This document shows positions 2,031-22,066 of a stretch of DNA of 64,000 nucleotides, piece after piece. The notes beneath the pieces were generated by a model. That model ran no database searches. It saw only the letters and a program-made list of their open reading frames with translations, and was not told the origin of the DNA. The DNA comes from Bacillota bacterium (GTDB lineage: Bacteria > Bacillota > Dethiobacteria > DTU022), in contig JAWODD010000041.1 of assembly GCA_046483445.1 (NCBI GenBank), positions 42,303-106,302 on the forward strand. The letters run 5' to 3'. A program made the translations under genes and the position numbers. Within the stretch, counting starts at the first letter, position 1. Each line of letters starts with the position of its first letter.

Positions 2031-2075
2031 AACCCCGGCCTGTCATATGATTCGATGGGCCGGGGTTTCATATTT
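2031..2075 (+). terminator. putative intrinsic terminator after the symporter gene
   Basis: Perfect 10-bp stem AACCCCGGCC / GGCCGGGGTT around a 17-nt loop, followed by the T-rich tract TCATATTTAT. Confidence 0.45.
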
Positions 2076-2211
2076 ATAACTCTGAAAAGTTGTCAAGAAA
2101 TGATCTAGGTTAACTTTAGCATGAAGAACCTTTTTAAAACAGGTTAGATCATGCAGGAAAAGGTGAAGATTTCTGGAACTCTGAAATATAGCTAACAAGA
2201 ATGATAAGGCG

Positions 2212-4795: not shown

Positions 4796-5698
4796 GTGAT
4801 GAATCGATTATACGGATTGCTTAAGGAAAACGGCCCCCTTACCGGGAAGGAACTGGTGGAAAAAAGCGGCCTGGAAGTGTTTGATGCCTGGAGGAACTGC
4901 TGTAAAGCAGAAGGGATAGTGACTCAAATTGTAGGGAATAGATACCTGCGGTTGGATCAGAAAGTTGCTGGTTATGCCCGCCTCTCGCCTTCTATTATGA
5001 GAGAGTTTTTAAATTATACTGTGGTGGGGCTCGATAAAGATATAGAAACTGTAGCAAAAGAAGCAGATAAACTTACCGATGAGATTACCGCTATTAGTAA
5101 AAAAAAGTTTGATTTAGCCAGGGACACTATTTACCGTTTACTTGAAGAACATCCGGGTAAAAATGCTGTAGTTGAGAAGACAGTTTTTATTATTGCTGGA
5201 GATGTGGTCTATAATATGGCCCACAAAGAACCGCGTCCTGAAGCCTCGACAGGTGAACTGGTTAAGGGTTCCGATTTGGATGTTATTGTGGTAAGCGGTA
5301 ATTTACCCAAACAGGAACTTAATAAACTGGATCAATTAATTTACAGGGAAAAATATAATTTATTGGTAAGCCCGGTATTAAAAGAAGAGCTTGATTATGT
5401 GGTTAAAGATGTAAATATCGTAAAAAGCCAGGTTCAGTTTAATGATTTTAAAGCTATGGTAGCTTCAAAAATACTTTACGAAGGAGTTTACCTTTACGGT
5501 AGTTATGATCTTTACTTGTTGATTAAAAAACTTGTGACTGATTATGGCGTTAACGAAAAGCTGAACTCACTGCAAGAAAAAGCCTGGGAAGACAGACTTG
5601 AAGCGGAGAGAACATTGTTGTCGGCTCCTGGTTCTGCCGGGGAAGAAGAATTAATGACCCTATTTTACACTACTGAAGAAAAAGAGGAAATTTTTTAA
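4796..5698 (+). CDS. hypothetical protein (winged-helix-like N-terminus; weak GSDLD motif)
   Basis: 300-aa ORF placed tightly between the LbH gene (4 nt gap) and nagB (19 nt gap). No confident family assignment by eye. Confidence 0.5.
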   Translation: MMNRLYGLLKENGPLTGKELVEKSGLEVFDAWRNCCKAEGIVTQIVGNRYLRLDQKVAGYARLSPSIMREFLNYTVVGLDKDIETVAKEADKLTDEITAISKKKFDLARDTIYRLLEEHPGKNAVVEKTVFIIAGDVVYNMAHKEPRPEASTGELVKGSDLDVIVVSGNLPKQELNKLDQLIYREKYNLLVSPVLKEELDYVVKDVNIVKSQVQFNDFKAMVASKILYEGVYLYGSYDLYLLIKKLVTDYGVNEKLNSLQEKAWEDRLEAERTLLSAPGSAGEEELMTLFYTTEEKEEIF

Positions 5699-5717: not shown

Positions 5718-6455
5718 ATGAAGATTTCAATTGTAGAGGATTATGATCAATTGAGCGAAAAGGCGGCAGCCATTGTTGCCGGGCAGTTGCAGGCAAAGAA
5801 GGATTCAGTTTTAGGGTTGGCCACCGGTTCCACTCCTGAGGGAATGTATGCGAACCTGGTTAAAATGTACCGGGAAGGTCTTCTTGATTTTAGTTCAGTG
5901 ATTACTTTTAATCTTGATGAATATGTTGGACTGTCACCACAGCACCCTCAGAGTTACCAGGCTTATATGTACAGACTTTTTTTCGATCACGTTAATATTA
6001 AGCCGGAAAATATTTATATACCCTCTTTAAATGAAAATATGGATTCTGTTGTACAAGTATGCCGGGATTATGATCAAAAGATTTACCAGGCGGGAGGAAT
6101 TGACCTGCAAATCCTTGGAATAGGCGTAAACGGGCACATCGGTTTTAATGAATCCGGTTCCAGTTTGCCAAAGAATACCTATATGGTAGATTTAAGCCCT
6201 GAAACCATCGAGGCAAACAGCCGCTTTTTTGATTCTGCTGAAGAGGTTCCCCACAGGGCGGTGACAATGGGTTTGGGTCCTATAATGCACGCAAAACGGG
6301 TCCTACTCTTAGCCTCCGGAAGAGATAAAGCCGAGGCGGTCAAGGAATCATTTAGCGGGCATATAACTACTCAAGTTCCCGCCTCCCTGCTCCAACTGCA
6401 CCCTGCTGCTCTGGTGCTTGTAGATCATGAAGCCGCCTTTCTGCTCAACGAATAG
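5718..6455 (+). CDS. nagB: glucosamine-6-phosphate deaminase
   Basis: MKISIVEDYDQLSEKAAAIVAGQL...VLGLATGSTPEGMY...ITFNLDEYVGL...GIGVNGHIGFNE are classic NagB motifs. 245 aa. Confidence 0.85.
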   Translation: MKISIVEDYDQLSEKAAAIVAGQLQAKKDSVLGLATGSTPEGMYANLVKMYREGLLDFSSVITFNLDEYVGLSPQHPQSYQAYMYRLFFDHVNIKPENIYIPSLNENMDSVVQVCRDYDQKIYQAGGIDLQILGIGVNGHIGFNESGSSLPKNTYMVDLSPETIEANSRFFDSAEEVPHRAVTMGLGPIMHAKRVLLLASGRDKAEAVKESFSGHITTQVPASLLQLHPAALVLVDHEAAFLLNE

Positions 6456-6617: not shown

Positions 6618-9600
6618 ATGGACGCCCAGTTTAAATCGGGAGCGCTGGAAGTTAATCTTGCCCAAACAAAGCATGAGCACAAAGAACTTCCCCAAAAACA
6701 TAGCTGGTTTGTTTCTCTGTCCTCTTCTTACTGGGGTATTAACAAAAGAACAGAAGAACTCTTTATTGAATACAACCACCCCCACCCAAATTATGACTAT
6801 ATTATAGAAAACCTGCACACGATCAGTCTAAACGACCTCTGGCTTTACAGCTCTCTTGAAGAATCGGAAGAAGCCCTTCTATTTCTCGTTTCTATCTTTA
6901 AAGATCTTTTCAATAAAGACCTTGCAGAACACCAGCGGGAGCAGCTTGTTAAAACCCTTTTTAAATTTACTGACAGACTGCTTAATGAAGGAAGTTACCC
7001 CCATAAAGTGATTTGGCGGGCCCTGGCTCTAATAGAAGAAGGCCTGGCACAAGATGAACATATTTACCTGCGCAATGCCGGTTATTTTAAAAAATACCTT
7101 TACCGGGCGGCAGCAGTCCCGGAATTTAATGAAGAAGTTTGCCGCCTGACCAAGGAGGTTTTGCGCAAAAGTTGTGCTTTTTGGGAAAGAACCACAAATG
7201 CTGAAGCCTGGTTTGAGAGTAAATCCGAATTATTTCAGCCTGTATATCGGGAGAAGATTAAGTTAATCGGAAAGGATTTCTTTGATCAACTGGCCGAGCG
7301 CATTGAAAACTCACACAGCTGGGAAGAAATCCAATCGAACCTTTTTTACAATGATATTGCCAACCATTTCCGCCACTTTAGCGAAGTATTTGAGTTTTCC
7401 GTAGAAAAAGTATATTACCTGGTATACGCCTTACATATTCCCGGTATGGCCCAATTGAAAAAACATCTCCTCTACGATCTTAACCGTCTGCTTAAAACCG
7501 CCCTTGCCGAACTTGATCACTCGCAAATTTATCACTTTGTTGATATGCTTTTTGATTTTTTCAGCGAACTCAAAGAACAGCAAACCGATACGGTCTTGGA
7601 CTGTATTTTTACCCTGGGAAAAGAGATTGTCAGCATTGATCATGAAAATATCACCGATCATTATATGCAAAAATTAATTGAGTTTGGTTTTGTTTACCCC
7701 GGAAAAGTTGAATTTAACAGTGAATGGGACACAAAAGTTAAAGAAAATCATGTTAAAAACATTCGTATATGGCTCGACCTGATCGAAACCTCCCCCTACA
7801 AATTTAAAAAGCTTTTATCTGCCCTGGTGGTTAATTTAAAACTGGGCGGTATATTTATTTCCGATACGGATCTTTTTCAGCGTGATGTAACCAGGCTCTT
7901 AAATGCTGATATTGCCCCGGTTTATAAACAGGTGAAACAGTTGGCCCGTTTCTTTCCGGTCTATTTTAACGAGATCGGAGCGGAAGGAAAACTGCGCGAA
8001 GTAAGCACCCTGATCGATGAAGTGGCTGGAAGGAAAGATAACGTAATCCACTTTGTTCGCAAGCAGATTCATGCCGAAAGTAATAATACCCACATTGAAC
8101 TGGTTAACCGGGTGGCTTATTACTGGCTCACCGGGGAACGCGCTCCCCTTGAAGAAATTCTTCCTCCAGATGTTTCTGCAACTATGGATGAAAACAACAG
8201 CCTTTTCAGCGGAGTTAATCAGTTAATAAAAGCTGCCTGCTCTCATTTTGCAGTTGACCATGCCGGGTTGCTACGGATTCCTGAAGATACAGTAGCAGCT
8301 TATCTGGAAACATCCTCCATAGCCCATGAGCGAGACAAAAAGCGTTTGCTCTACCTGATTCAGCTGAACCAGCTTTTGTTGGAAAAATATTCGTTTGAAA
8401 CTCGGGATGTTAAAGGCTTGCTTTTAAGCAGTCGTTTTTTTACCCGTGAAGAAATTGACAATTTTGCAGCGCTGCTGGAACAAAATCGCTACCACGAGGC
8501 GTTGGAGCAGCTATATTCATTTATGAGTGTGCTTAAAGAGGTGATTTTGAGTAAATCGGAAACCAAGGCCATTGAAACCATCTACTATAAGCGGCATATA
8601 GCCGCCGGCATTCCCTCTATGTACGGCCAGTATAAAGAACCAAAATTTGAAGCCCTTGGTTTGATGTACAGGCTGGAACAGGTGGCTTCCCGCCTGATGG
8701 AAAAAACTCTTGCAGAAATTGAACTGGAATATATCTCGACCAAAACCCTGCGCAATATATATGAAGTCCTGGTGCTCTTTAAAAAAGGATTGGAACTTGA
8801 TGGGATGGTAAACCAAAATTTTAACTCCACCCTGGAAATGTTTCGTTACAGCCTTACTTCAACCAGTGTGACTTTAAGTCAGCACATGAATATATTTCGG
8901 TTTATGTCCCAGCATATCAAAGAACTGATCAACGAATATTTTATCCGGGTTTATGATGAAACCATCAATGTAGTGATCCCCCAGATTTTTGATCATTCTC
9001 CGGAAACACTTGCCAGGGAATCGGAGAAATTTTACCGCGATATTCTTTCTTCTGCATTTTTAATCCAGGAACTGGATCAATTTATTACCAATGCTTTGAA
9101 TATGATCAACAATATGCTAGAAAATTATTCTGAAGAGCATATTAACAATATGATGAGTTTTAACCCGGAACTGGCTATCAGCCCACTCGATTGCGAAACT
9201 CTTAAAATGGATAACCAGGTATTTCTCGGGGCCAAAGCTTATTACCTGAAAAAGTTAATGGCTTACAGTTTGCCTGTACCGCCAGGTTTTGTGATTACTA
9301 CCGAAGTATACAGACACAAGGAGACAATTTTTAAGCACCCTTACATGAGCATGGAATTGCACAAAATGATTGCCCGCCAGGTTGAGGTGATAGAGAAAAA
9401 AACAGGCCTGAAATTTGGCAGCACCACTCGGCCCATGCTTTTATCAGTCCGTTCCGGGACGGCAATTTCTCTGCCCGGGGCGATGAGCACTTTTCTCAAT
9501 GTGGGCATGACCGAAGAAATTGCCCGTAGTTTGGATAAAAGTCCCGAAACTTCCTGGATGGGTTGGGATTCCTACCGCCGGTTTATCCAAAGCTGGGGGA

Positions 9601-10682
9601 TGGCATACGGGGTTGACCGGGACTGTTTTGATGAAGTAATGGTCAGAATCAAATCCAAATATGGTGTGGAAAGGAAATCAAGTTTCAGCGCAGAGCAGAT
9701 GAAGGAACTGGCCCTTGAGTATAAGAAAACTTTAAACGATCACGGTGTATTTATTGTCGAGGATCCTTTCGATCAATTAAAACAGGCAATTAATAATATC
9801 TTTAATTCATGGTCTTCAGAAAGAACTGTGGCTTACCGCAGGCATCTGCAGATTGCCGATGAATGGGGAACAGCGGTTTTAGTGCAAAAAATGGTTATGG
9901 GCAATCGGTCCAAGCGTTCGGGTTCCGGGGTTGTTTTTACCCATAATCCCAAGCTTAAAAAGCCGGGGATTAATTTATATGGCGACTTTACCCTTTGCAG
10001 CCAGGGAGAAGATATCGTAGCCGGCCTGGTTTACCCCCTGCCCATTTCGGAAAGCCAGCGCAGTGATGACTATCCCGAAAGCGAGATTTCACTGGAGTCG
10101 GCCTTTCCCAAAATTTATAACCGCCTGCGGGAAATAGCTACTGATTTAATTGAAAAGTACGGTTTTAACAACCAGGAAATAGAGTTTACTTTTGAATCAG
10201 AAAATCCAGAGGACCTATATATCTTGCAAGCCAGGGAACAAAACATTGTCCAGCAGGAAAAAGTAGCAGTTTTTAGCTTGCCCGATAAAGAAATGAACCC
10301 TGTTGGCCGGGGGATTGGAATAGGCGGTGGAGCCCTGAGCGGGGTAGTCAGCTTCGATATGGAAGATTTGCAGGAAAATAAACAGAAATATCCGGATAGG
10401 GCCCATATTTTGATCCGTCCCGATACTGTGCCGGATGATATTCAAATGATCTTTATGTGTGACGGCCTGGTAACCAGCAGAGGAGGAGTCACCTCCCACG
10501 CCGCTGTGGCGGCTGAAAAGTTGGGTAAAGTATGTATTGTCAATTGCAAGGAACTGGTTGTCGATGAAGTGCAGAAAAAATGTACCATCAATAATTCGCT
10601 TATAAACAAGGGTGATTTTCTTTCGATTGACGGCAAACTGGGAATCATTTATGCAGGCAGTTATCCGGTCCATTACCTTTAA
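6618..10682 (+). CDS. large (1354 aa) PEP-utilizing-enzyme-family protein: novel ~860-aa helical N-terminal region fused to the PPDK-like nucleotide-binding (ATP-grasp) and phospho-histidine swivel domains; no PEP/pyruvate-binding domain
   Basis: GAGGTGA RBS then ATG at 6618. Residues ~865-1354 align by eye with the genuine PpdK in this same window (52531..). Examples: [29 protein letters not shown] vs [53 protein letters not shown] vs [36 protein letters not shown]...[11 protein letters not shown]...GEDIVAGLV; and the swivel motif [24 protein letters not shown] vs LTSRGGMTSHAAVVARGMGKPCV. The protein ends about 45 aa after the catalytic-His motif. Confidence 0.8.
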   Translation: [1354 protein letters not shown]

Positions 10683-10725
10683 TCGGTATAAAAACTGAGA
10701 TAGATTATTAATTGAAGGAGGATTT

Positions 10726-11982
10726 GTGGTGAGCAGCTACCTGCAAAGCAAGAAAACTTTAGGAATCAACGGAGCCGGACGAATTGGCAAGTTAACTCTT
10801 TGGCATCACTTAAACGATGGGCATTTTGATTATTTTATAATCAACACCGGTCGGGGAGCAGGTAAAAAACTGGAAGATATAATTGATTACCTGGTAAAGG
10901 ATTCTACTTTTGGTTCCCTGGATCGCTTTATGTATGGGTATTCCGGAAAAACTTGTACTATAGAAATTACCGAGCGGGAAGCAAACTTATTTACAATAAA
11001 TGGTGTTCCGGTTAAAATTACCACTTATTCTCGGAATCCGCGGGAGATAAACTGGGCCAAAGAAGGAGTGCAGCTTGTAATTGAGTGCACCGGCAGTCAT
11101 GTCGATCCAGCGGCGCCGGCCGATCAGCCGAAGGGCAGTGTGCGAGGGCATCTTGAAGCCGGTGCTGAGAAAGTTATCGTCAGCGCCCCTTTTAAAGTGG
11201 CTGATGAAGCTAAAAAAATGCCTGCAGATAGCTGCATGTTTGTTTACGGGATTAATCATGATAAGTATGATCCTTCCACCCATCATATCTTGTCTGCGGC
11301 CAGCTGTACCACTACCGGGTTGTCGCATATGATAAAACCCCTGCTGGAAACCAGGGAAACGGCGAGTGTTATTACCGCCTCGATGTCTACAGTTCACGCC
11401 GCTACCAATAATCAAAAAATCTTGGATGCAGTGCCTAAAGCAGGGACTTCAGATTTGCGCAAAAATCGCTCTATCTTTAATAATATTATTCTTACCAGTA
11501 CCGGAGCTGCAAAAGCCCTGGAAGAAATTATGCCGGAAATTAAAGATATTGGCTTTATGGCCGACTCGGTAAGGATTCCCACCAATACCTCTTCACTAAT
11601 TATGCTTAATGTAACTTTTAAAACCGATCTCAATGCTTCCGGGGAACCCCTGGTTAACCGGGATCTGATCAATGAAATCTATAAAAAAGCCTCTGCCGGC
11701 GCTCAAAAAGGAATGGTGGTTTACAGCGAGAAGCAAAATGTTTCCACCGATCTGGCCGGCTTTCCAGCGGCAATAGTAATTGAGGGTGTAGAAACCCATT
11801 CCCGCACAGGGTTTATCAGGCTTAATGCTGAAATCATACAGGAACATGGTGTTGAAGCGCCTACCGATATTAATATTCCGGTTACCCATGCAAAAATATT
11901 TGGTTGGTATGACAATGAATTGGGCAGCTATGTTAATCTGCTTGGCAAACTGGCCGTCTATGTGGATAAAAACATGCCCTAA
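10726..11982 (+). CDS. divergent glyceraldehyde-3-phosphate dehydrogenase-family protein (418 aa, with insertions)
   Basis: GGAGG RBS then GTG. N-terminal Rossmann motif LGINGAGRIGKL (compare GINGFGRIGR). Catalytic motif SAASCTTTGLSHMIKPL (compare SNASCTTNCLAP). Also AEKVIVSAPFK (compare GAKKVIISAP). About 80 aa longer than a canonical GapA. Confidence 0.7.
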   Translation: MVSSYLQSKKTLGINGAGRIGKLTLWHHLNDGHFDYFIINTGRGAGKKLEDIIDYLVKDSTFGSLDRFMYGYSGKTCTIEITEREANLFTINGVPVKITTYSRNPREINWAKEGVQLVIECTGSHVDPAAPADQPKGSVRGHLEAGAEKVIVSAPFKVADEAKKMPADSCMFVYGINHDKYDPSTHHILSAASCTTTGLSHMIKPLLETRETASVITASMSTVHAATNNQKILDAVPKAGTSDLRKNRSIFNNIILTSTGAAKALEEIMPEIKDIGFMADSVRIPTNTSSLIMLNVTFKTDLNASGEPLVNRDLINEIYKKASAGAQKGMVVYSEKQNVSTDLAGFPAAIVIEGVETHSRTGFIRLNAEIIQEHGVEAPTDINIPVTHAKIFGWYDNELGSYVNLLGKLAVYVDKNMP

Positions 11983-12003
11983 TTTTAAAAGTGGAGGCAG
12001 AAA

Positions 12004-13134
12004 ATGGTAAATTCGGACGGCAAAGCAGTAGTCGCCCTCGAACAATGTTTGCGCTATCATCCCCAAACAGTGCGTAGTAGTTTAGAACAGCTTTTGGGAC
12101 ATTTCGGCGGAATAAATAGCCTGGTTAAACCCGGCCAAAAAGTTCTCCTTAAGCCGAACCTGCTTGCGGCTGCGCTACCGGTGGAAGCAGTGAGCACCCA
12201 TCCCGTGGTGATGAAAGCCATGGCTGAAATGATCTTAGAAGCAGGCGGCAGGGTCTATCTGGGAGACAGCCCCGGCAATGATTCCCAGGAAAAAGCTTTG
12301 CGAGTATGCGGGATGAAAGAGGTTATTGAAGAAACCGGGGCGGAAACGCTTTTTTTTAATGATACAACCAATGTGGAAGTTAACAATTTTAAAAAAAGAG
12401 ACATTCCGGTTGCCGCGGCCCTGAAGCAGGTTGATCTCATTTTCAACATGGGTAAGTTAAAAACGCATGCTTATACCGGAATGACCGGGGGCATTAAAAA
12501 TGTATTTGGCTGTGTGGTTGGGAGCAGAAAAGCCCGCTTCCATTTGGATTATCCTTTCCCTCTTGATTTTTCCAGGCTTTTAGTCGATGTCTACCTGGCT
12601 GTAAAACCTTCCTTTTCCATCTTGGACGCGGTTATTGCTATGGAAGGAACAGGGCCCAGGCGGGGCAGGCCGCGTCAGCTTGGCTTGCTGATGGCTTCGC
12701 CCAGTGCAGTGGGCTTAGACAGGGTGGCTGCGGCAATTACCGGTTTTTACCTTGAAGAGGTTCCTACTTTGGTAGCGGCTAAAGAATTAAATTTGACCGG
12801 ATCGGAGTTATCTTCAGTCCTGGTTAAAGGACTATCTCTGGAAAGAAGCAAGGTTTTAGATTTTGACAAAGGCCCTGCCGCCGGGGGGAGATTAAGTCGC
12901 CTGTTAGCGATGTTTCCGGTGGCCCGCATTCGGGACTTTTTTGCAGCAAGACGTCCCTATCCCAAAGTGAAACCTGCTCTTTGCAACGGCTGCGGGGTTT
13001 GCCGGGACAATTGTCCGGCCCAGGTAATTGAATTTAAGATGTCTATACCGGATATAGATTACCGGGGGTGTATTCGCTGTTACTGCTGCCAGGAATTTTG
13101 TGCGCAGGGGGCAATTGACCTTACAAATAAATAA
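12004..13134 (+). CDS. DUF362 domain protein with C-terminal 2x[4Fe-4S] ferredoxin-type domain
   Basis: Two CxxCxxCxxxCP-type motifs at the C-terminus (CNGCGVCRDNCP and CIRCYCCQEFC). The N-terminal 300 aa resemble the DUF362 family common in Clostridia. Confidence 0.7.
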   Translation: MVNSDGKAVVALEQCLRYHPQTVRSSLEQLLGHFGGINSLVKPGQKVLLKPNLLAAALPVEAVSTHPVVMKAMAEMILEAGGRVYLGDSPGNDSQEKALRVCGMKEVIEETGAETLFFNDTTNVEVNNFKKRDIPVAAALKQVDLIFNMGKLKTHAYTGMTGGIKNVFGCVVGSRKARFHLDYPFPLDFSRLLVDVYLAVKPSFSILDAVIAMEGTGPRRGRPRQLGLLMASPSAVGLDRVAAAITGFYLEEVPTLVAAKELNLTGSELSSVLVKGLSLERSKVLDFDKGPAAGGRLSRLLAMFPVARIRDFFAARRPYPKVKPALCNGCGVCRDNCPAQVIEFKMSIPDIDYRGCIRCYCCQEFCAQGAIDLTNK

Positions 13135-13275
13135 TTTATCTGCCCTTGCTTGCTTCCGGGAATATTTATAGCTCATTAACCCGGTAATATTCCATTGGTC
13201 TGGTTAAGATTTTATGATATAGTAAATCTAAATTGTTACAATAAGGTTTGCAGAGTTTGCCGGAGGTGTTGATGG

Positions 13276-14871
13276 TTGCAAGTTTTGGTCAGCGATGCAT
13301 TTTCTCCCGAGGGGTTGAAAGTGCTTGAAGAACATACGGAAGTTGTTTACAAGCCTGAAATCAATAAAGATGAATTAATAGGAGAAGTGGGATCTTATGA
13401 TGCCCTGGTAGTTCGCAGCCGGACCAAGGTTAATTCTGAAGTAATTGAAGCAGCTAAAAATTTAAAAGTGATCGGCAGGGCCGGAGTCGGTGTGGACAAT
13501 ATTGATGTGGATAAGGCTACTGAAAGGGGTATTATTGTGGTCAACGCTCCGCACGGCAATACCATCTCTGCCGCAGAGCACGCTATTGCTTTGCTTACTT
13601 CCCTGGCCAGGAACATTGCCCAGGCCGACTATTCCGTTAAGACAGGTCAGTGGAAGCGATCCAACTACACCGGCGTTGAGTTGAACCGCAAAACCCTTGG
13701 TGTAATCGGGGTGGGGCGCATTGGCAGTGAAGTAGCCCGGCGGGCCAGGGCCATGGGGATGAATATTATTGGCTACGACCCTTATATCACCACCGAGCAG
13801 GCTGAAAAAATAGGCATAGAAGTGGCTTCGTTTGAGGAGCTTTTAAAACAGACTGATTTTATTACTTTGCACCTGCCGCTTAACCAATCAACCTATCACC
13901 TGATCAGTGAAAAGGAAATAGAGTTGATGAAGCCGGGAATGCGCATTGTCAATTGTGCCCGGGGAGGACTGATTGATGAGGATGCATTGTGCAAAGCTCT
14001 TCAGGAAGGAAAAATAGAGGGTGCCGCGCTTGATGTTTTCGAACAGGAGCCGCCTGGTAGCTGCAAACTGCTGGAGTTGAACAATGTGATTTTAACGCCT
14101 CATCTTGGCGCGCTAACCCGGGAGGCGCAGTTAAATGTTGCCCGCCAGGTATCGGAGCAGGTGATCAGGGCTTTGCAGGGAGAACCAATCGTTTCAGCCG
14201 TAAATGTACCGGCGTTAATGCCGGAAACCAGGGCAGCCCTGGGGCCATTTTTACCCTTGATGCGAGTAATGGGCAGTTTCTACCTGCAGATGTTTGGCGG
14301 TTCTGTAGATGAAATTGAGATCACTTATAGCGGTGAAGTAGCCAAGATGCCGCTATCTCCATTAACTATTTCCTGTTTAATTGGATTTTTACAACATGTA
14401 GTCGGAGAAGAAGTTAACTGGGTTAATGCTTCCTATATCGCGAAAAACAGGGGTATTGAAGTCAGGGAAACTTCTACTACTGAAGTGAAAAATTACAGTA
14501 ATTTAATTACCCTAAAAGCCAAGTCGGGATTTGAAGAGCATCATATTTCAGGAACCCTGCTTAACAACGATATGCGCCTGGTCAGGGTTGATGATTACCG
14601 GATTGAGATTATTCCGGCCAGCTATATGTTAGTGACCACCCACCATGATCAACCCGGCGTAGTAGGTAAAATAGGGACGTTATTAGGCAATGAACATGTT
14701 AATATTGCCTCCATGCAGCTTGGAAGGCAAAGTGCCGGTGGAGAAGCAATGATGGTTTTACAGGTTGACGATGAAATGAGCAAGGATTCATTGAATAAAG
14801 TAAGAGAGCTTGATGTAATATCATCGGCCCGATTTGTAAGCTTGCCAGGAAATATTTTTTCTGAAGCATAA
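13276..14871 (+). CDS. serA: D-3-phosphoglycerate dehydrogenase (long form with C-terminal ACT domain)
   Basis: TTG start with a GGAGGTG RBS. MQVLVSDAFSPEGLKVLEE...GVIGVGRIGSEVARRA (NAD-binding GxGxxG)...catalytic HLGALT...; 531 aa, consistent with an ACT tail. Confidence 0.9.
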   Translation: MQVLVSDAFSPEGLKVLEEHTEVVYKPEINKDELIGEVGSYDALVVRSRTKVNSEVIEAAKNLKVIGRAGVGVDNIDVDKATERGIIVVNAPHGNTISAAEHAIALLTSLARNIAQADYSVKTGQWKRSNYTGVELNRKTLGVIGVGRIGSEVARRARAMGMNIIGYDPYITTEQAEKIGIEVASFEELLKQTDFITLHLPLNQSTYHLISEKEIELMKPGMRIVNCARGGLIDEDALCKALQEGKIEGAALDVFEQEPPGSCKLLELNNVILTPHLGALTREAQLNVARQVSEQVIRALQGEPIVSAVNVPALMPETRAALGPFLPLMRVMGSFYLQMFGGSVDEIEITYSGEVAKMPLSPLTISCLIGFLQHVVGEEVNWVNASYIAKNRGIEVRETSTTEVKNYSNLITLKAKSGFEEHHISGTLLNNDMRLVRVDDYRIEIIPASYMLVTTHHDQPGVVGKIGTLLGNEHVNIASMQLGRQSAGGEAMMVLQVDDEMSKDSLNKVRELDVISSARFVSLPGNIFSEA

Positions 14872-14896
14872 TCATTAAAAGAGATGAGGTGTAAAT

Positions 14897-15145
14897 ATGG
14901 TCAAGGTTTATGCATTAAGCACCTGTCCCTGGTGCAAAAAAGTTAAGAAATTGCTCGATGATCGCGGAATTAACTATGATGTAATCGATGTTGATTTAGC
15001 CCAGGGAGAAGAACAGAAAAAAGCTTTAAAAGAAGTAGAAGACTTAACCGGTAAAAGGTCTTTTCCGGTAACGGTAATTAATAACCAGGTGATCCAGGGT
15101 TTCAAACAGGAAGAAATTGCAGGGGCGCTCGATAGTGAAAAATAA
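14897..15145 (+). CDS. glutaredoxin-like protein (YruB/NrdH-like, CPWC active site)
   Basis: MVKVYALSTCPWCKKVKKLLDDRGINYDVIDVD shows a thioredoxin-fold CxxC motif. 82 aa. Starts 25 nt after the serA stop. Confidence 0.8.
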   Translation: MVKVYALSTCPWCKKVKKLLDDRGINYDVIDVDLAQGEEQKKALKEVEDLTGKRSFPVTVINNQVIQGFKQEEIAGALDSEK

Positions 15146-15509
15146 AATATACTGCGAGGTGTGCCAGAGTTCTTTCGTTTATAAGGGTGTAATTAGTCCC
15201 GGACAGGTAATTGTATGTACAATTTGCGGCGCCGAACTGGAGATTAAAGAAAGTGATCCGGAGATAAAAGCGGCGCGCCTGGAACAGGATCCGGAAACTG
15301 AAATTTCTCGGAGGGCTGAAAATTTTGCCCGGTTGCGCGGCTACACCTTCAATGAAGACAAAGAGCTTGTGCTGGAAGGCCTGGTGGAAAAACACAGATT
15401 GTTTGGTGATTTTTACTGTCCCTGCCGATTTGCGCATGTTCCGGAATACGTTTGTCCCTGCCTGGAAACCCGGATGAATGAGGTGCGCAAAACAGGGAAA
15501 TGTTATTGA
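15135..15509 (+). CDS. ferredoxin-thioredoxin reductase catalytic-subunit-like protein with N-terminal rubredoxin-like zinc ribbon (start may be the ATG at 15117)
   Basis: N-terminus CEVCQ...CTICG is a rubredoxin-like CxxC...CxxC. C-terminus ...FGDFYCPCRFAHVPEYVCPCLETRMNEVRKTGKC carries the CPC...CPC motifs of the FTR catalytic chain. Overlaps the end of the glutaredoxin-like gene. Confidence 0.65.
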   Translation: MKNKIYCEVCQSSFVYKGVISPGQVIVCTICGAELEIKESDPEIKAARLEQDPETEISRRAENFARLRGYTFNEDKELVLEGLVEKHRLFGDFYCPCRFAHVPEYVCPCLETRMNEVRKTGKCY

Positions 15510-15569
15510 AACCTTTTTCATCTAAAGGAGTGAGTTCACTCCTAAAATAGGCAGGAGAAAGACTAAAAT

Positions 15570-16508
15570 ATGAAGATAGATTTCGTGCGCGGTCATATGG
15601 GGGGCAACTTAATTGTCCTCGTTAAAGGAGAGCAAATACCCGGAGGCAGGGAACTGGAAACCGGGGTTAAACTGCTTAAACCTCACTACCTTTGCGCCCA
15701 TGAAATAGGGATTCTTTATCCGGCAGGCAGAGCTTCCGAACTGACAGTAAAAATAGCTGAACCGACTTCGGAGTGTTTTATCAGCGCCTGCGGCGGGTTC
15801 ACCCAGGTGCTCGGAGCAGCCCTGATTGAGACCGCGCTTGGCGATGATTTAGGGGTGGAGAAAAAAGAACCTTTAACAAAGGTGCTGTTGCACACCGAAG
15901 GTGGACAAGTGCCCCTGGAGATTGAAACCAAAGGCAATAAATCCCTGCGCATTAAAACCGATATGACCAGTTTTGTCCAGGAAAGTTATGAAAAGGGTAT
16001 CGGTAAGTTGAAGCATGAAAATTTGGAAGTTATGCAGGCTGGTAAATTTTTAGTGATCAATGCTGATCGTTTTAAGGAAGCTTACCCGTGGGCTGATTTT
16101 GAAAAATGGGATCAAAAAACCAGGCAAAAAGTCAATGATATCCAGGATCAGTTTATTGCTGAAACCGGTGAAGATGAGTATAATGTGGTTCTTTACGACT
16201 GGCATCCTGAATACGGGATGGATTTAAGGGTGGTTTATCCGCACTGTGTGAAAGCCGATTATTTTGAACCCTCCTGCGGCACAGGCACTGTAGCCTTAGG
16301 CCTTGCAGTCCTGGCCTGGGATGAATTGCCTGAAGAAACAAAAGAACGGGATACTGTAACTCTAAAATTTGAATGTGGCGGAAATATTGAACTGGGCGGC
16401 CCGGAGATTACGGAACTGGAAATGAAAGTTGAAAACGGGCGGGTTAAGGAAGCGGCCTTATCACACAGCAAGGTCGAAATTACAGCGGTTGGAGAAGCCT
16501 GGTTATAG
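15570..16508 (+). CDS. proline-racemase / DapF-fold two-cysteine isomerase family protein, specificity unknown
   Basis: C-terminal motif EPSCGTGTVALGLAV matches the proline-racemase family second catalytic Cys motif (SPCGTGTSAKLA). N-terminal KIDFVRGHMGGNLIV roughly matches IDSHTGGEPTRIV. The first-Cys region SACGGFTQVLGAA fits as well. 312 aa. Confidence 0.6.
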   Translation: MKIDFVRGHMGGNLIVLVKGEQIPGGRELETGVKLLKPHYLCAHEIGILYPAGRASELTVKIAEPTSECFISACGGFTQVLGAALIETALGDDLGVEKKEPLTKVLLHTEGGQVPLEIETKGNKSLRIKTDMTSFVQESYEKGIGKLKHENLEVMQAGKFLVINADRFKEAYPWADFEKWDQKTRQKVNDIQDQFIAETGEDEYNVVLYDWHPEYGMDLRVVYPHCVKADYFEPSCGTGTVALGLAVLAWDELPEETKERDTVTLKFECGGNIELGGPEITELEMKVENGRVKEAALSHSKVEITAVGEAWL

Positions 16509-16613
16509 GGTTCCCGGAAAGGGTCAGTTTAGCTATATTAAGCCAGGCAATTTTAATATCTCCAACTGCAACAAACTCCGCAGAGTGCACCGGTAGAGCC
16601 GGTTTTAATGCTG

Positions 16614-19052
16614 TTATTCTTCTTCCTGTTTATTAAGATCTTTATCTTCTTCGGAAGTCTTGCCAAAGTTTTTCATTCGCTGGGCATAGGAACGAAGCGC
16701 CTGCTCTACCTTGAAGTTAATGCTATCCTCTTCGAAAGTACCGTCTTCTTTTCTCCTGCCTGCCCTGGTTCCTGTTAAAAGTTCGATCCCTTCTACAACC
16801 GTATTTACGGCGTAAACGTAAAAATCTCCCCGGCGGACGGCTTCGACAACTTCTTCTTTCAGCATCAGGTTTGGTTCATTACTCCTGGGAATGATTACTC
16901 CCTGGTCTCCGGTTAAGCCGCGGGTTTTGCACAGTTCATAGAATCCTTCAATTTTTTCGTTTACTCCACCGATGGCCTGCACTTCTCCCCTTTGATTGAC
17001 GGAACCGGTTACAGCCAGGTTTTGTTTCAAGGGTACGTTTGCCAGGGAAGACAATAGAGTATACAATTCAGTGCTGGAGGCGCTGTCGCCTTCTATTTCG
17101 GAGTAACTTTGCTCAAAGACAAGCCTGGCTGACAGGGTTAAAGGCATTTCTTTAGCGTACATCGATGATAGATAACCGCTTAAGATCATCACCCCTTTGC
17201 TGTGCAGGCGGCCGCCCAGCTGTGCTTCCCTTTCTATGTCGATGATGCCTCCCCGGCCCATTCCCAGGCTGCAGGTGATCCTGGTCGGCTTTCCAAAAGA
17301 ATATTCTCCCAGCTGCATCACTGAAAGCCCATTTATTTGGCCAACCTTTGCTTCTTCGGTATCGATTAGCAGGAAATTTCGTTCCATTGATTCCTGAAGT
17401 TTTTCCTGGACCAGGTTTGAACGGTAAACTTTTGATTCAATCGCCTGGTTAATATGTTCATCACGCACATAATCTTCGGAATTGGAATGGGCATAAAAAC
17501 AGGCTTCTCTAACGATATCGGCTATCTCCGAAAAGCGGGTTGATAGTTTATTTTGATCTTCAGCCAGGCGCGAGCCATGCTCAACAATTTTGGCCATGGC
17601 GTTGTTATCCAGATTTATTAAGTTTTCCTTCTGACAAAAAGAGTTGGCGAAAGAACAATAGCTCTTTATGTTTTCTTCGTTGCGTTCCATGATAGTGTCA
17701 AAGTCTGCTTTTACTTTAAACAGTTCTCTAAAGTCCAAGTCCAGGTTGTACAGAAGGTGGTAAAAGATCGGAGTGCCGATGATTACAATCTTAACGTCAA
17801 GTTTGACCGGTTCCGGGCGAAGGGTTTTGGTAGCTACAAAACCAAGCTTTTCTCCCGGTTCTTCAATTTCCAACTCATTGCTTTTGATTACTCGCTTCAG
17901 GCTTTCCCAGGTGAAGGGGTTTCTAAGCAGCTCATCTATTTTTACGACAAAAAAACCGCCGTTGGCCTTGTGCAGGGAACCCCCGCGAATCATGGTGAAA
18001 TCGGTAACCAGCCCTCCAAACTGGGTTTCCTTTTCGATCCGGCCAAAGATATTGTTATAGGTAGGGTTTAGTTCCAGCACTACCGGGGCGCCCTTAAGAT
18101 CAGAGTTATCTACGATCACATTAACCTGGTATTTTTTAAACCTGGCTTCCTGGTCACCGGGAATAGGGAAGGGAAGAGGTTGCTGTTGTTGTTGCTGTTC
18201 CTGCTGCCTGAACATATTGATATTATCCAGCATGTCTTCCTGCATTTCTTGGAGGAAGTTGATCACCTTCGGGAACCCTTTGTATTTTTCTAACAAATCC
18301 TGGAAAAGGTGTTCCACGGCAAAGAGGGCTGCCTTGCGATCCAGTTCTTTTATTTCTTCAGCCAGCTTTTTATCAATATTTCTTGTTTCCCGGAGAGTGC
18401 TCTTAAGTTCTTCCTCGAGTTTTCGTTTTTTCTCAAAAATTTCTTCCCGCTCTTTATCCGACAAAGCGTTTAAATCCTGATCCTGCAGGGGCTTGCCGTC
18501 TTTCTGGGGCAACAGCACAAAACCGCTGGGAGTGCTTTGGATAATAAAACTACTTTCTGAAGCTTTCTGGTTAAGGTCATTAAACATTTTTTGTTTTTTT
18601 TCGTTATACTGGTTTGCCAGGTTTTCTCTTTGCGCAATGTAATCGTCGCTTTCAAAAGCGCGCGGAATCTCCTGGCGCGCGTTTTCCACCAGGCTTCCAA
18701 CATCTTTTTCCAGCACAGCTCCCTGGCCTGCCGGGAGCACCAGGTTGTGTGGTTGGTAGGGAGATTTAAAGTTATTAACGTAACATAGGTCAGAAGGAGT
18801 GGGAGCTTCTTTAGCGATTTGATCTACGTAGTTTTTTACCGCCGTTTCCTTTCCTGTGCCTGGCATACCGGCGGCATATATATTAAAGCCGGGACTTTTT
18901 ATGTTTAAGCCAAATTCCAGGGCGTGCAAAGCTCTATCTTGCCCCACTATGCTCTCGCTGTTTCCGTCTTTTTTAACCGGGCTCTCGATGGTGGTATCCT
19001 CCGGTTTGTATTCCAACCTTAACTTTTCTGCCGGGATTTTCATGCTTTCCAT
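16614..19052 (-). CDS. Lon-like protease, LonC-type (AAA-like domain with degenerate Walker A, plus S16 Ser-Lys proteolytic domain)
   Basis: AAGGAG RBS on the minus strand. GMPGTGKETAV is a P-loop in which the residue after Lys is Glu, not Ser/Thr. The C-terminus LAVTGSVNQRGEVQAIGGVNEKIEGF is a Lon S16 domain with a catalytic Ser...Lys dyad. 812 aa. An internal QQEQQQQQQ tract is present. Confidence 0.8.
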   Translation of the reverse strand: MESMKIPAEKLRLEYKPEDTTIESPVKKDGNSESIVGQDRALHALEFGLNIKSPGFNIYAAGMPGTGKETAVKNYVDQIAKEAPTPSDLCYVNNFKSPYQPHNLVLPAGQGAVLEKDVGSLVENARQEIPRAFESDDYIAQRENLANQYNEKKQKMFNDLNQKASESSFIIQSTPSGFVLLPQKDGKPLQDQDLNALSDKEREEIFEKKRKLEEELKSTLRETRNIDKKLAEEIKELDRKAALFAVEHLFQDLLEKYKGFPKVINFLQEMQEDMLDNINMFRQQEQQQQQQPLPFPIPGDQEARFKKYQVNVIVDNSDLKGAPVVLELNPTYNNIFGRIEKETQFGGLVTDFTMIRGGSLHKANGGFFVVKIDELLRNPFTWESLKRVIKSNELEIEEPGEKLGFVATKTLRPEPVKLDVKIVIIGTPIFYHLLYNLDLDFRELFKVKADFDTIMERNEENIKSYCSFANSFCQKENLINLDNNAMAKIVEHGSRLAEDQNKLSTRFSEIADIVREACFYAHSNSEDYVRDEHINQAIESKVYRSNLVQEKLQESMERNFLLIDTEEAKVGQINGLSVMQLGEYSFGKPTRITCSLGMGRGGIIDIEREAQLGGRLHSKGVMILSGYLSSMYAKEMPLTLSARLVFEQSYSEIEGDSASSTELYTLLSSLANVPLKQNLAVTGSVNQRGEVQAIGGVNEKIEGFYELCKTRGLTGDQGVIIPRSNEPNLMLKEEVVEAVRRGDFYVYAVNTVVEGIELLTGTRAGRRKEDGTFEEDSINFKVEQALRSYAQRMKNFGKTSEEDKDLNKQEEE
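18170..18205 (-). repeat. CAG/CAA trinucleotide tract encoding a poly-Gln linker inside the Lon-like gene
   Basis: + strand reads ...gaggttgctgttgttgttgctgttcctgctg...; the minus strand encodes QQEQQQQQQP. Confidence 0.5.
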
Positions 19053-19128: not shown

Positions 19129-20625
19129 TTAAAGCCGGTTCAAGTACTGCTTCAAATGCTCAGGCATTTGTTCAGGTTTGATCACCTGGTGATGCTTTAC
19201 CGGTTTTTTTTCCAGTTTTGCCAGGTTTACTGGAACCGGCATTCCGGTTTCCCGGTTTAAAATCTTGATCATATCAAATTCGCTTAGGTTATTTATCTTG
19301 TTTTTATCGAACAGGGCCTGCAGGGTGCTCCCGGCGAATTTATAGGGGCTGGCTGTGGATAAAAGGACCGAGGTAGTTGGGTCATTTTCCTTTTCCCGGT
19401 ATTTGTCCAGCACGTTTTTCCCAACCGCAGTATGCGGGTCGGTTAAATAGTGGTAATTCCGGTAAGTGTCAGCTATAGTCTGCAGGGTTTCATCATCTCC
19501 GGCATAATCCGACCAGAACAATTCCTGTATTTTTTTGTGAGTTTCCTGATCGATTGTGTAAGTGCCTGTTTCGGTTAGCTGGTCCATCCAATATGATATT
19601 TTTTCACCGTCGTGGTTGGTTAACTCGAATAGCAGGCGTTCAAGATTGCTCGATACCAGGATGTCCATGGAAGGAGAATGGCTCCTATAAAAAGGCCTGC
19701 GCTTGTCATAAGTGCCTGTGTTAATAAAATCAGTGAGGACATTATTGCGGTTGGCGGCACAAATCAACCGGTTAACCGGCAGGCCCAGGCATTTGGCATA
19801 ATAACCGGCCAGGATATTGCCAAAATTGCCGGTGGGAACAACAAAATTTACTTTATCTCCGGCTTTGAGAGCTTCCCGGTTGATCAGCTGGCGGCAAGCG
19901 AAAAAGTAATATACTATTTGAGGCAGCAGGCGCCCCCAGTTAATTGAATTGGCCGAGGATAATCGGTAGCCCGATTTCTGCAGCTTTAAAGAGAATTCCT
20001 GGTCATTAAAGATTTGTTTAACTGCGCTTTGCGTATCATCAAAATTACCTTCTACGGCGAATACTCCCACATTTGAGCCTTCCTGGGTGGTCATTTGCAA
20101 TCTTTGAATTTCACTGACTCCTCTTTCCGGGAAGTAGACAATGATTTTTATTCCGGGGACATCGCGAAACCCTTCCAGGGCTGATTTGCCGGTATCGCCG
20201 GAAGTAGCGGTTAAGATCACTATTTCTGAAGCTTCACTGGCGGTTTCAACTGCGGTTTTTAAAAGGTAAGGTAAAATCTGCAGGGCAATATCTTTGAAAG
20301 CATAGGTGGGACCGTGAAAGAGCTCCAGGACATCTAGTTGGCTGGAGAGTTTTTCCAGAGGAGTGATTGCCGGCTGGTCAAAAGTATCCTGAGTGTAAGC
20401 GGATTGAACCGCGTGTTCTATTTCCAGCCGGCTGTAATCTTTCAGGAAAGGTTCAAAAATGGCCGTGGTTGTTTCCCGGTAATCACTGGCAGACAAATTT
20501 TCTACTTTAATGGACTGGAGCGGTTCAGCAGGGACGAATAGCCCTCCGTCAGGCGCTAACCCCTTGATGATTGCTTCTTTGGCGGTGGTGGGCCCTGTTT
20601 GACCCCTGGTGCTGTAATAACGCAT
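19129..20625 (-). CDS. thrC: threonine synthase (long form)
   Basis: MRYYSTRGQTGPTTAKEAIIKGLAPDGGLFVP is the classic ThrC N-terminus. 498 aa. AAGGGG RBS. Confidence 0.9.
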   Translation of the reverse strand: MRYYSTRGQTGPTTAKEAIIKGLAPDGGLFVPAEPLQSIKVENLSASDYRETTTAIFEPFLKDYSRLEIEHAVQSAYTQDTFDQPAITPLEKLSSQLDVLELFHGPTYAFKDIALQILPYLLKTAVETASEASEIVILTATSGDTGKSALEGFRDVPGIKIIVYFPERGVSEIQRLQMTTQEGSNVGVFAVEGNFDDTQSAVKQIFNDQEFSLKLQKSGYRLSSANSINWGRLLPQIVYYFFACRQLINREALKAGDKVNFVVPTGNFGNILAGYYAKCLGLPVNRLICAANRNNVLTDFINTGTYDKRRPFYRSHSPSMDILVSSNLERLLFELTNHDGEKISYWMDQLTETGTYTIDQETHKKIQELFWSDYAGDDETLQTIADTYRNYHYLTDPHTAVGKNVLDKYREKENDPTTSVLLSTASPYKFAGSTLQALFDKNKINNLSEFDMIKILNRETGMPVPVNLAKLEKKPVKHHQVIKPEQMPEHLKQYLNRL

Positions 20626-20851: not shown

Positions 20852-22066
20852 TTGAAGTACATAGTAATTGTCGGAGACGGGATGGCTGATTACCCTATGG
20901 AGCAGTTGGGTAACAAGACAGCTTTGCAGTATGCTCAAACTCCTTCGTTTGACCGGATTGCCGCTGAAGGTGAAGTTGGATTGGTCAAAACAATTCCGGG
21001 TGATCTGCCTCCGGGAAGTGATACGGCTAATCTTTCGGTAATTGGTTATGACCCGCTGCAGTACTATACCGGGCGTTCTCCTTTTGAAGCGATTAGCCTG
21101 GGAGTGGAATTGGAACCCACCGATGTTTCTTTTCGCTGCAATTTGGTTACTCTTTCAGAGGATGAACCTTACCGGAGTAAAATGATGAGCGACTACTGTG
21201 CCGGTGAAATATCAACCGAGGAAGCTGGTGAACTTATAGCTGCAGTAAATGAAAAGCTTGCAACAGAGAAAATTGAATTTCACAGCGGTTTTAACTACCG
21301 GCATCTTATGGTTTGGCATGGCGCCCCTGATCATTGGGAGCTAACCCCGCCCCATGATATTAGCGGACAGGCAATCAGCAGTTACCTTCCCGCAGGGGAG
21401 GAAAGCGACAAATTAAGGTTAATGATGGAGGAAAGTTACAGGATTCTTGCCGACCACCCGGTAAACCGTAAAAGAATTGACAAAGGGCTAAACCCGGCCA
21501 ATTCCATCTGGATCTGGGGCAACGGCAAGAAACCGCTTTTGCCCGCTTTTAAGGAAAAATACGGTTTGAACGGGTCGGTAATTTCGGCTGTTGATCTGGT
21601 TAAGGGGATCGGCTTATTTGCCGGTCTCGATTTGATTAAAGTAGAGGGGGCTACTGGCAACCTGGATACCAATTACAGGGGAAAGGCTGAAGCGGCGATT
21701 AAAGCGCTTCAGGGCGATCAGGATTTTATTTACCTGCACGTTGAAGCTCCCGATGAATGTTCCCACCGCTTTGAAACGGAAAATAAGCTCAAAGCAATTG
21801 AATTAATCGATCAAGAAGTGGTAAAAACAATCACTGATTATTTGGAAAAAAGCGGTTTTGACTATAATATACTAATGATTACCGATCATTACACCCCGCT
21901 TTCGCTGGGAACTCATACCAGGGAACCGGTCCCTTTTGCCATTTATCGCAGCAGCGGCCCTAATAAGGTCCAGGAACTAAAATTTGATGAAGCCAGCGCT
22001 TCCGGCACCGGTTTATTTATAGAGGAAGGTTACCGGTTAATGGACCGCTTTATAAAACAGGCATGA
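20852..22066 (+). CDS. cofactor-independent phosphoglycerate mutase family (archaeal ApgM-type); probably the 'proposed homoserine kinase' subgroup found beside thrC
   Basis: MKYIVIVGDGMADYPMEQLGNKTALQYAQTPSFDRIA...GSDTANLSVIGYDP is typical of the COG3635 / ApgM family. TTG start with an AAGGAG RBS. Divergently adjacent to thrC. Confidence 0.75.
   Translation: MKYIVIVGDGMADYPMEQLGNKTALQYAQTPSFDRIAAEGEVGLVKTIPGDLPPGSDTANLSVIGYDPLQYYTGRSPFEAISLGVELEPTDVSFRCNLVTLSEDEPYRSKMMSDYCAGEISTEEAGELIAAVNEKLATEKIEFHSGFNYRHLMVWHGAPDHWELTPPHDISGQAISSYLPAGEESDKLRLMMEESYRILADHPVNRKRIDKGLNPANSIWIWGNGKKPLLPAFKEKYGLNGSVISAVDLVKGIGLFAGLDLIKVEGATGNLDTNYRGKAEAAIKALQGDQDFIYLHVEAPDECSHRFETENKLKAIELIDQEVVKTITDYLEKSGFDYNILMITDHYTPLSLGTHTREPVPFAIYRSSGPNKVQELKFDEASASGTGLFIEEGYRLMDRFIKQA

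Follow-up and report, generated by a model that had tools for sequence, protein, structure and literature searches.

The stretch analysed here (the window) comprises 64,000 nt of contig JAWODD010000041.1 (positions 42,303 to 106,302) from a member of the Bacillota in the Dethiobacteria lineage DTU022. It contains a string of four closely spaced genes, which code for D-3-phosphoglycerate dehydrogenase (SerA), a glutaredoxin-like (Grx-like) protein, a homolog of the catalytic subunit of ferredoxin-thioredoxin reductase (FTR-like protein) and a 312-aa protein with a racemase fold. Here we describe a candidate selenocysteine (Sec) codon in the FTR-like gene and the linkage of this gene to its Grx-like partner. 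Coordinates are positions within the window, and all genes lie on the + strand unless marked otherwise. The features of the string are as follows.

13214..13242, + strand: promoter-like site ATGATA-17-TACAAT with TG extension (consensus scan only, 9/12 matches)
13276..14871, + strand: serA, long-form D-3-phosphoglycerate dehydrogenase (TIGR01327, 690.9 bits, cut-off 454)
14897..15145, + strand: Grx-like gene, 82 aa, CPWC active site (PF00462, 1.7e-16)
15135..15533, + strand: predicted FTR-like selenoprotein gene, zinc ribbon and FTR catalytic domain, 132 aa, GTG start (PF02943)
15507..15509, + strand: in-frame TGA, read here as selenocysteine U125 (TGA in 29/29 loci)
15526..15543, + strand: candidate bacterial selenocysteine insertion sequence (SECIS) hairpin (RNAfold, ortholog covariation)
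15570..16508, + strand: 312-aa racemase-fold gene (fold by structure prediction and fold search)
16589..16603, + strand: small hairpin ACCGGU-AGA-GCCGGU followed by UUUUAAU, weak terminator candidate (sequence, RNAfold)

The serA product is 531 aa long, starts with TTG and contains intervening and ACT domains (Pfam 2-Hacid_dh, 2-Hacid_dh_C, PGDH_inter and ACT). The Grx-like protein passes the PF00462 cut-off (60.6 bits versus 22.9). TIGR02196 (YruB) is its top-scoring model, yet the score of 67.8 bits is below the cut-off of 88.55; of the first-pass annotation as a YruB-type glutaredoxin, the CPWC motif and the glutaredoxin domain stand, whereas the assignment to YruB does not. The gaps between serA and the Grx-like gene, the Grx-like and FTR-like genes, and the FTR-like and 312-aa genes are 25, -11 and 36 nt, respectively. 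From serA to the 312-aa gene, all genes are on the same strand, with short gaps, a kept order and no internal terminator; terminator-like matches inside the string occur at the level expected from shuffled sequences, with no signal above chance. Based on this spacing, co-transcription of all four genes is plausible. The promoter-like site, which falls in the 141-nt gap 5' of serA, is a candidate for the start of the transcription unit, and the consensus scan returned 20 such sites in the region versus 13.4 +/- 3.4 in shuffled sequences, a slight excess that is no proof of function. The small hairpin at 16589-16603 is located between the convergent 312-aa and LonC-like genes and consists of six pairs, including one G-U. 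It had been described as a bidirectional terminator, but its UUUUAAU tail is present on the + strand only, the region is no better than shuffled sequences (RNAfold, z = +0.76) and the consensus terminator scan did not pick it up. An Rfam scan of positions 13000-16800, covering T-box, riboswitch and SECIS elements, gave a single sub-threshold chance match.

The in-frame TGA of the FTR-like gene

The FTR-like gene is predicted to start with GTG at 15135, where orthologs have ATG. Its product has an N-terminal zinc ribbon with four Cys residues in a CxxC...CxxC arrangement (C7, C10, C28 and C31), followed by the FTR motifs C95-P-C97, C107-P-C109 and C123-Y-U125. The first-pass annotation interpreted the N-terminal domain as a rubredoxin fusion; it is not recognizable as rubredoxin and is closest to LysW, with 24.7 bits against a Pfam cut-off of 27. 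The same annotation ended the gene at TGA 15507-15509, taking what we read as a Sec codon for a stop. The frame continues through this codon as ...G-K-C-Y-(TGA)-N-L-F-H-L-K-E-(TGA), with the second stop at 15531-15533. Since the reading frame would thus extend to 15531-15533, the gap to the 312-aa gene is 36 nt and not 60 nt as first given; the 25-nt gap between serA and the Grx-like gene and the overlap of the Grx-like and FTR-like genes (11 nt with the GTG start at 15135) remain as originally described.

The match to PF02943, a profile of 106 positions, stops at position 81, right where the TGA occurs. When the codon is read through as Cys, the match reaches position 87 and the score rises from 30.5 to 41.2 bits (+10.7), above the cut-off of 22 and with the CPC...CPC...C-x-C pattern present. 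The TGA takes the place of the final Cys in the C-H/Y-C motif of FTR, which by alignment offset corresponds to residue 87 in chain 1dj7_A of Synechocystis FTR, and the segment G-x-C-Y-C-x-L-Y/F of the solved structures 7pwe and 4tpu aligns with G-K-C-Y-U-N-L-F of the window protein.

For a comparison of this codon, 28 loci from GTDB species genomes were added to the window, giving a set of 29. The Sec position is TGA in all 29 loci and never TAA or TAG, while the later stop varies, with 28 cases of TGA and one of TAA. Among the seven codons that follow the TGA, Asn is found in 28/29 loci, and His and the Leu at +5 in 29/29. The Leu residues at +2 and +5 are each encoded by six different codons, and the codon differences in this segment are 62 synonymous versus 26 non-synonymous. 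On these counts, the seven codons between the TGA and the second stop are under amino-acid constraint. An exhaustive HMMER search also identified Cys-form homologs with the same zinc-ribbon and FTR architecture, such as P0241 (..CRCGLF..), P0243 (..CYCGLY..) and P0247 (..CSCRLF..). These proteins end in ...C-x-C-x-L-F/Y... and have a Cys at the Sec position.

Bacterial SECIS elements are, according to published bSECIS models, stem-loops located shortly 3' of the UGA with a G in the apical loop. The candidate in the window, as folded by RNAfold, has a core helix formed by 15527-15532 and 15537-15542 with the apical loop AGUU, starting 17 nt after the UGA; it contains the second (true) stop codon and occupies the 36-nt gap before the 312-aa gene. 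Across 25 orthologs, 99.3% of cells are paired compared to 51-64% in slid controls, compensatory double changes are seen in 3/6 pairs, and the loop is AGUU or AGUUU with the G present. At L094 and L088, Sec-type loci that are more distant, the equivalent position is taken by hairpins that differ from this one.

The conserved TGA, the constrained post-TGA peptide, the hairpin and the Cys homologs together argue for a selenoprotein of 132 aa encoded at 15135-15533. Judged by sequence, the FTR-like gene carries all the hallmarks of a bacterial selenoprotein gene, and the stop-like TGA that closes it is most likely a Sec codon. If TGA 15507 were instead an ordinary stop, the gene would code for a 124-aa truncated FTR-like protein or be a decaying pseudogene, and the hairpin would be a terminator or attenuator. 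The existing database entries, which end at this TGA, and the lack of Sec machinery in the 64-kb window would be in line with this. However, the truncated product would lose the second redox-active residue and the conserved L-F, the hairpin at 15526..15543 is not followed by a U tract, the Cys homologs continue through the same position, and neither the invariant TGA nor the amino-acid constraint on the codons behind it would be expected. We regard an ordinary stop as extremely improbable.

At least 185 database proteins belong to the clade, and in the 5.8-billion-protein database searched, all 120 homologs among the matches listed are called as 124-132 aa proteins ending at the TGA. The named entries are labelled 'ferredoxin-thioredoxin reductase catalytic domain-containing protein', and the public annotation of the FTR-like gene is a truncated 124-aa protein. 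Very probably, the FTR-like proteins of this clade are systematically mis-annotated and are selenoproteins of 132 aa; re-annotation of the 185 or more database proteins would restore an active-site residue. A more distant Sec-type FTR-like gene is present in locus L094 (2156-2550; ...G-H-C-Y-(TGA)-Q-L-F-F...), and hence Sec forms appear to occur in more than one lineage of the FTR-like family. The N-terminus of the L094 protein is without the full 4-Cys ribbon; a Grx gene of its own lies upstream of the FTR-like gene, and the same locus contains a rubrerythrin gene in convergent orientation.

Gene order in related genomes

The window proteins were compared by tblastn with 80 loci that code for 312-aa protein relatives. 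The order serA, Grx-like, FTR-like and 312-aa gene was found in ~26 species-level loci of metagenome-assembled genomes (MAGs), all of them Syntrophomonadaceae-type or unclassified Bacillota and many from soda-lake sediment. In these loci, SerA is 70-90% and the 312-aa protein 55-82% identical to its window counterpart. Conservation in relatives had been named beforehand as a test of the arrangement, with a lack of synteny as the outcome that would count against it, and the order is indeed conserved. An arrangement that recurs in ~26 species-level loci is not a product of chance. The junctions differ in how strictly they are kept. The Grx-like and FTR-like genes overlap by 11 nt in 29/29 loci, whereas the distance between serA and the Grx-like gene has a median of ~23 nt (9-114; 26 loci) and that between the FTR-like and 312-aa genes a median of 56 nt (25-262; 29 loci).

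Outside the complete string, several partial arrangements are found. Locus L041 has the order NagB-Grx-FTR-312aa and locus L017 the order Grx-FTR-312aa, both without serA. In L027, L037-L045 and L048, the 312-aa gene is present without the Grx/FTR pair and is located behind a dimethylarginine dimethylaminohydrolase (DDAH)-like and/or a NagB-like gene. Conversely, L088 lacks both serA and the 312-aa gene, and its Grx/FTR pair precedes a LysM gene; beyond the clade, in L091 and L092 (Cys-form) and L094 (Sec-form), a Grx gene is located directly 5' of the FTR-like gene in unrelated surroundings, again with neither serA nor the 312-aa gene. Every other junction is thus broken somewhere, while the Grx/FTR junction never is, and the gene orders therefore indicate that the conserved functional unit is the Grx-like plus FTR-like pair, the only invariant linkage, and that serA and the 312-aa gene are lineage-specific neighbors of this pair. 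The coupling of the Grx-like to the FTR-like gene proposed earlier is real and tight, as borne out by the 11-nt overlap in all 29 loci; the physical link of the pair to serA and the racemase gene, on the other hand, proves to be separable.

One alternative is that the four genes form a single functional unit, in which a relay from ferredoxin via the FTR-like and Grx-like proteins reduces or switches the Cys residues of the racemase-fold enzyme, and the enzyme acts on serine or an intermediate of the SerA pathway. The recurrence of the string with short median gaps on either side of the pair would fit such a unit, as would the retention of Grx-FTR-312aa in L041 and L017 even without serA, and two-Cys epimerases are open to oxidative inactivation (PDB entry 5h2g is titled 'oxidized DapF'). 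However, the 312-aa gene is found without the Grx/FTR pair in L027, L037-L045, L048 and all ~50 loci of distant homologs, and L088, L091, L092 and L094 have the pair but neither the 312-aa gene nor serA. In addition, gaps of 125-262 nt between the FTR-like and 312-aa genes in several loci leave room for separate promoters, and distant members of the 312-aa family are found beside DDAH/arginine deiminase (ADI), ornithine transcarbamoylase (OTC), permease and Sacchrp_dh genes and not beside serine genes. A single four-gene unit is, in our view, unlikely.

The slot between the NagB-like gene on the left and the thrC/apgM-like/aconitase anchors on the right has variable content. The variants are NagB-312aa; NagB-Grx-FTR-312aa; NagB-(PPDK-GAPDH-DUF362)-serA-Grx-FTR-312aa; and Grx-FTR-LysM. 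In L037-L045 and L048, which are from more distant Syntrophomonadaceae MAGs, the NagB-like gene is immediately 5' of the 312-aa homolog. The window NagB-like gene is 51% identical to the one beside the 312-aa gene in L037, and in the window's clade, a 9-kb block from the PPDK-like to the FTR-like gene looks to have been inserted between the NagB-like and 312-aa genes. The adjacency could accordingly be without function: the NagB-thrC slot would be prone to rearrangement, the serA block, the Grx/FTR pair and the racemase gene would have been placed in it independently, and the racemase would function in metabolism of the Arg/Cit/Orn type or of other amino acids. The fixed anchors (NagB-like on the left; thrC, apgM-like and aconitase on the right) with varying content between them point in this direction, and so does the DDAH-like gene that adjoins 312-aa homologs in 12 loci from three phyla. 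The short same-strand gaps in ~26 species-level genomes are more than unrelated genes would give, which speaks against purely independent placement, but common descent could explain them. We consider this a serious competitor whose odds are a little short of even.

The reading we prefer, with a probability of roughly 0.75, is that of a tight four-gene string with a two-gene ferredoxin-dependent disulfide-reductase module at its core, the second gene of which codes for a selenoprotein, and with serA and the 312-aa gene as mere clade-specific, probably co-transcribed neighbors. Several points weigh against it. No selA, selB, selD or tRNA-Sec gene was found within the 64-kb window. The SECIS candidate matches no Rfam family, its 5' arm shares nucleotides with the final codons and the stop, so that coding accounts for some of its conservation, and the window hairpin alone is modestly more stable than shuffled sequences (z = -1.85). 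The short gaps kept in ~26 species-level MAGs could still mean a functional link within the clade.

The 312-aa racemase-fold protein

The 312-aa protein contains the motifs ISACGG (Cys74) and EPSCGTGT (Cys236) and an N-terminal GHMGGN, and both Cys residues are invariant. The invariant columns of a 75-sequence alignment include M10-G-G-N13, C74-G-G, T78-Q-V, H225, E233, C236-G-T-G and H299. No match to Pfam (including PF05544) or NCBIfam models was obtained at E <= 0.01, and a precomputed PF05544 match is present in some homologs only. The family is small: 133 matches came from the protein database, and GTDB genomes gave 133 stretches that were confirmed. In the AlphaFold2 model (predicted local distance difference test score, pLDDT, 95.8), C74 and C236 are each located at the N-terminus of a helix, and structure prediction and fold search both return a DapF-type fold with a Cys/Cys pair at helix N-termini. 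The prediction of a two-Cys racemase/epimerase fold independent of pyridoxal 5'-phosphate (PLP) was therefore well founded. In alignments of the family profile, C74 falls on the Cys of MCGH in the proline-racemase-family protein 6r76 and C236 on the conserved Cys of SC-x-SG in the Fusobacterium histidine racemase; the profile matches PDB proline racemases with E = 1.7e-4 and DapF with E = 0.44. The protein was also considered as the DapF of its genome, a role that the latter match neither favors nor excludes. By its modelled structure, the 312-aa protein is a member of a two-Cys family that has yet to be described and has a DapF/proline-racemase fold; racemization or epimerization of an amino acid is its most likely activity. 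It would define a two-Cys racemase-fold family for which there is no Pfam or NCBIfam model. Compared with the DapF-fold PLP-independent racemases described so far (proline racemase, 4-hydroxyproline epimerase, the HisR/CntK histidine racemases and DapF), it has <=19% identity to every solved member. It is roughly equidistant from all DapF-fold subfamilies, so that none of them can serve to assign a substrate.

The genes surrounding distant homologs suggest a different area of metabolism from the serine pathway in which the first-pass annotation had tentatively placed the enzyme. Outside the clade, these contexts involve DDAH/ADI, OTC, permease and saccharopine-dehydrogenase-like genes, which argues against a role in serine or redox pathways. 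In L001-L004, the homologs are part of a cluster of arginine deiminase, OTC, carbamate kinase and permease genes with a PAS_6/HTH_22 regulator. A DDAH/amidinotransferase-like gene adjoins them in 12 loci from Bacillota, Bipolaricaulota and Synergistota (L027, L037-L040, L043-L045, L055, L056, L061 and L075); in L075, two 312-aa paralogs flank the DDAH-like gene. Further distant contexts include saccharopine-dehydrogenase-like, Asp/Glu-racemase-like, GntR and peptide-permease genes. The 64-kb window contains no DDAH-like gene. As a weak best guess from gene context, the 312-aa family may be tied to guanidino/ureido (Arg/Cit/Orn-type) amino-acid metabolism. Redox control of C74 and C236 by the Grx/FTR pair is possible, though the comparative data lend it no specific support.

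Proposed mechanism, known relatives and flanking genes

For the core module, we infer the electron donor, the cluster ligands and the Grx-like substrate mainly by analogy with FTR and the ferredoxin:disulfide reductase (FDR) of Methanosarcina. UGA 15507-15509 would be decoded as Sec with the help of the SECIS hairpin 17 nt downstream. Reduced ferredoxin would then supply single electrons in succession to a [4Fe-4S] cluster with C95, C107, C109 and C123 as its ligands, and the cluster would cleave the active-site C97-U125 selenenylsulfide, with U125 as the cluster-proximal residue and C97 as the exposed exchange thiol. These roles of individual residues we take to be the same as in Synechocystis FTR, from whose structures they were carried over to the window protein with the alignment offset. 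The C97/U125 pair would next reduce the disulfide in the CPWC motif of the Grx-like protein, which is translationally coupled and may pass the reducing equivalents on to further targets, with C74/C236 of the 312-aa enzyme as one candidate. The metal of the zinc ribbon may be either Zn or Fe, and the domain may have a part in docking or in the entry of electrons. Sec at the cluster-interacting position only would constitute a natural probe of the FTR mechanism. A more far-reaching version of this scheme is a Se-dependent, ferredoxin-driven thiol switch, with a Se-Fe bonded [4Fe-4S] intermediate, a selenenylsulfide and a dedicated Grx-like relay to the Cys/Cys pair of the racemase and perhaps also to serine synthesis. 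We think this quite doubtful, and less probable still than the single four-gene unit; if true, the switch would tie D-amino-acid or amino-acid metabolism to the energetic state of the syntroph.

Sec-containing homologs of the FTR catalytic subunit were reported in 2008 from the GOS (Global Ocean Sampling) metagenome, with one read containing Sec at both redox-active Cys positions (PMC2398784), and selenoproteome reviews (2022, 2026) list a 'Ferredoxin-thioredoxin reductase, CxU' with the NCBIfam model NF041072 (PMC13188914). The window protein shares with these Sec-FTRs (GOS; NF041072, 'FtrB family double-selenoprotein') the PF02943 domain, a UGA-encoded Sec in a C-x-C motif (CxU) and a downstream candidate bacterial SECIS. 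However, it scores 22 bits with NF041072, below the cut-off of 160, and is predicted to have one Sec, in the last motif only, with Cys in the first CPC motif. In contrast to the GOS proteins, which are from marine plankton, it comes from anaerobic Syntrophomonadaceae-type Bacillota, has a 4-Cys zinc ribbon at its N-terminus and invariably occurs together with a Grx-like gene. The low NF041072 score, the single Sec and the N-terminal zinc ribbon therefore point to a different subfamily of Sec-FTR. While Sec-FTR as a selenoprotein family is known already, the sequences described here appear to be a variant that is new in both architecture and phylogeny and is tightly tied to a Grx-like partner. 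This Bacillota zinc-ribbon subfamily would join a Sec-FTR family so far known from marine metagenome reads.

The best-matching solved structures are the Methanosarcina acetivorans FDR (4tpu; PMC7278568) and 7pwe, 'ferredoxin-thioredoxin reductase subunit B', with marginally significant E-values of 5.9e-5 and 4.5e-7, respectively. Like the window protein, both are single-subunit enzymes with a CPC...CPC...CYC pattern and an extra metal-binding Cys domain, but they have Cys where the window protein has Sec. In 4tpu, the FTR domain is at chain residues 7-87 of 173 and the extra domain is C-terminal, whereas the ribbon of the window protein is N-terminal. No description of a partner Grx for 4tpu or 7pwe was found in the literature, and no documentation was found there of a clostridial YruB/FTR-like ferredoxin-dependent disulfide reductase system. 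The latter had been presumed to be established; the characterized relatives are instead the Methanosarcina FDR and 7pwe. The catalytic subunit of plant and cyanobacterial FTR (1dj7, 7bzk) has the same three Cys pairs, and U125 falls on the second Cys of its CHC motif. In contrast to the classical heterodimeric FTR, no gene for a variable subunit is adjacent in the window, the motif is CYU and not CHC, and the motif spacing differs. Also, while classical FTR reduces thioredoxin, the conserved neighbor here, and also in L088, L091, L092 and L094, is a Grx-like gene, and the presumed substrate is the Grx-like protein. The invariant Grx-like/FTR-like pair, found in Sec and Cys forms and in unrelated contexts, would nominate a specific physiological substrate for the poorly understood single-subunit FTR-like/FDR proteins of anaerobes.

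The genes that flank the string in the window are the following.

5718-6455, + strand: NagB-like (glucosamine-6-P deaminase family) gene, left anchor
6618-10682, + strand: PPDK-like (pyruvate phosphate dikinase) gene, 1354 aa (Pfam/NCBIfam)
10726-11982, + strand: GAPDH-like (glyceraldehyde-3-phosphate dehydrogenase) gene, 418 aa (TIGR01534, 303.6 bits, below the cut-off of 367.2)
12004-13134, + strand: DUF362/4Fe-4S gene, C-terminal 2x[4Fe-4S] domain (Pfam/NCBIfam)
16614-19052, - strand: LonC-like protease gene (AAA_32, LonB_AAA-LID, LonC_helical, Lon_C)
19129-20625, - strand: thrC
20852-22066, divergent from thrC: archaeal-type cofactor-independent phosphoglycerate-mutase-family (apgM-like) gene (PhosphMutase/Metalloenzyme)

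The block of PPDK-like, GAPDH-like and DUF362 genes (6618..13134) is kept 5' of serA in many related loci; in L085, two small opposite-strand open reading frames (ORFs) part it from serA. In the PPDK-like protein, family matches are confined to an ATP-grasp (PPDK_N) and a phospho-histidine swivel domain in the region of residues ~865-1349; there is no phosphoenolpyruvate/pyruvate-binding domain, and the ~860 N-terminal residues are without a family match. The GAPDH-like protein is atypically long, and its gene is directly followed by the DUF362/4Fe-4S gene. A 300-aa ORF (4796-5698, +) between the hexapeptide-repeat transferase and NagB-like genes has no Pfam family at E <= 0.001; it was considered as a counterpart of the DDAH-like neighbor of 312-aa homologs and rejected, as it shows no similarity and no Pfam match. 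At 606-3348 (+), a gene for a sodium:alanine symporter precedes one for a PLP-dependent alanine racemase, which is a second, unrelated racemase in the window. On the right-hand side, the LonC-like gene between the 312-aa gene and thrC is found in the nearest relatives only (L005, L019), and most other MAGs have an ECF-type (extracytoplasmic function) sigma factor gene, a 157-aa ORF and a DUF8173 gene in this slot. Further on, thrC and the apgM-like gene, followed by major facilitator superfamily and aconitase genes, constitute a clade-wide right-hand anchor.

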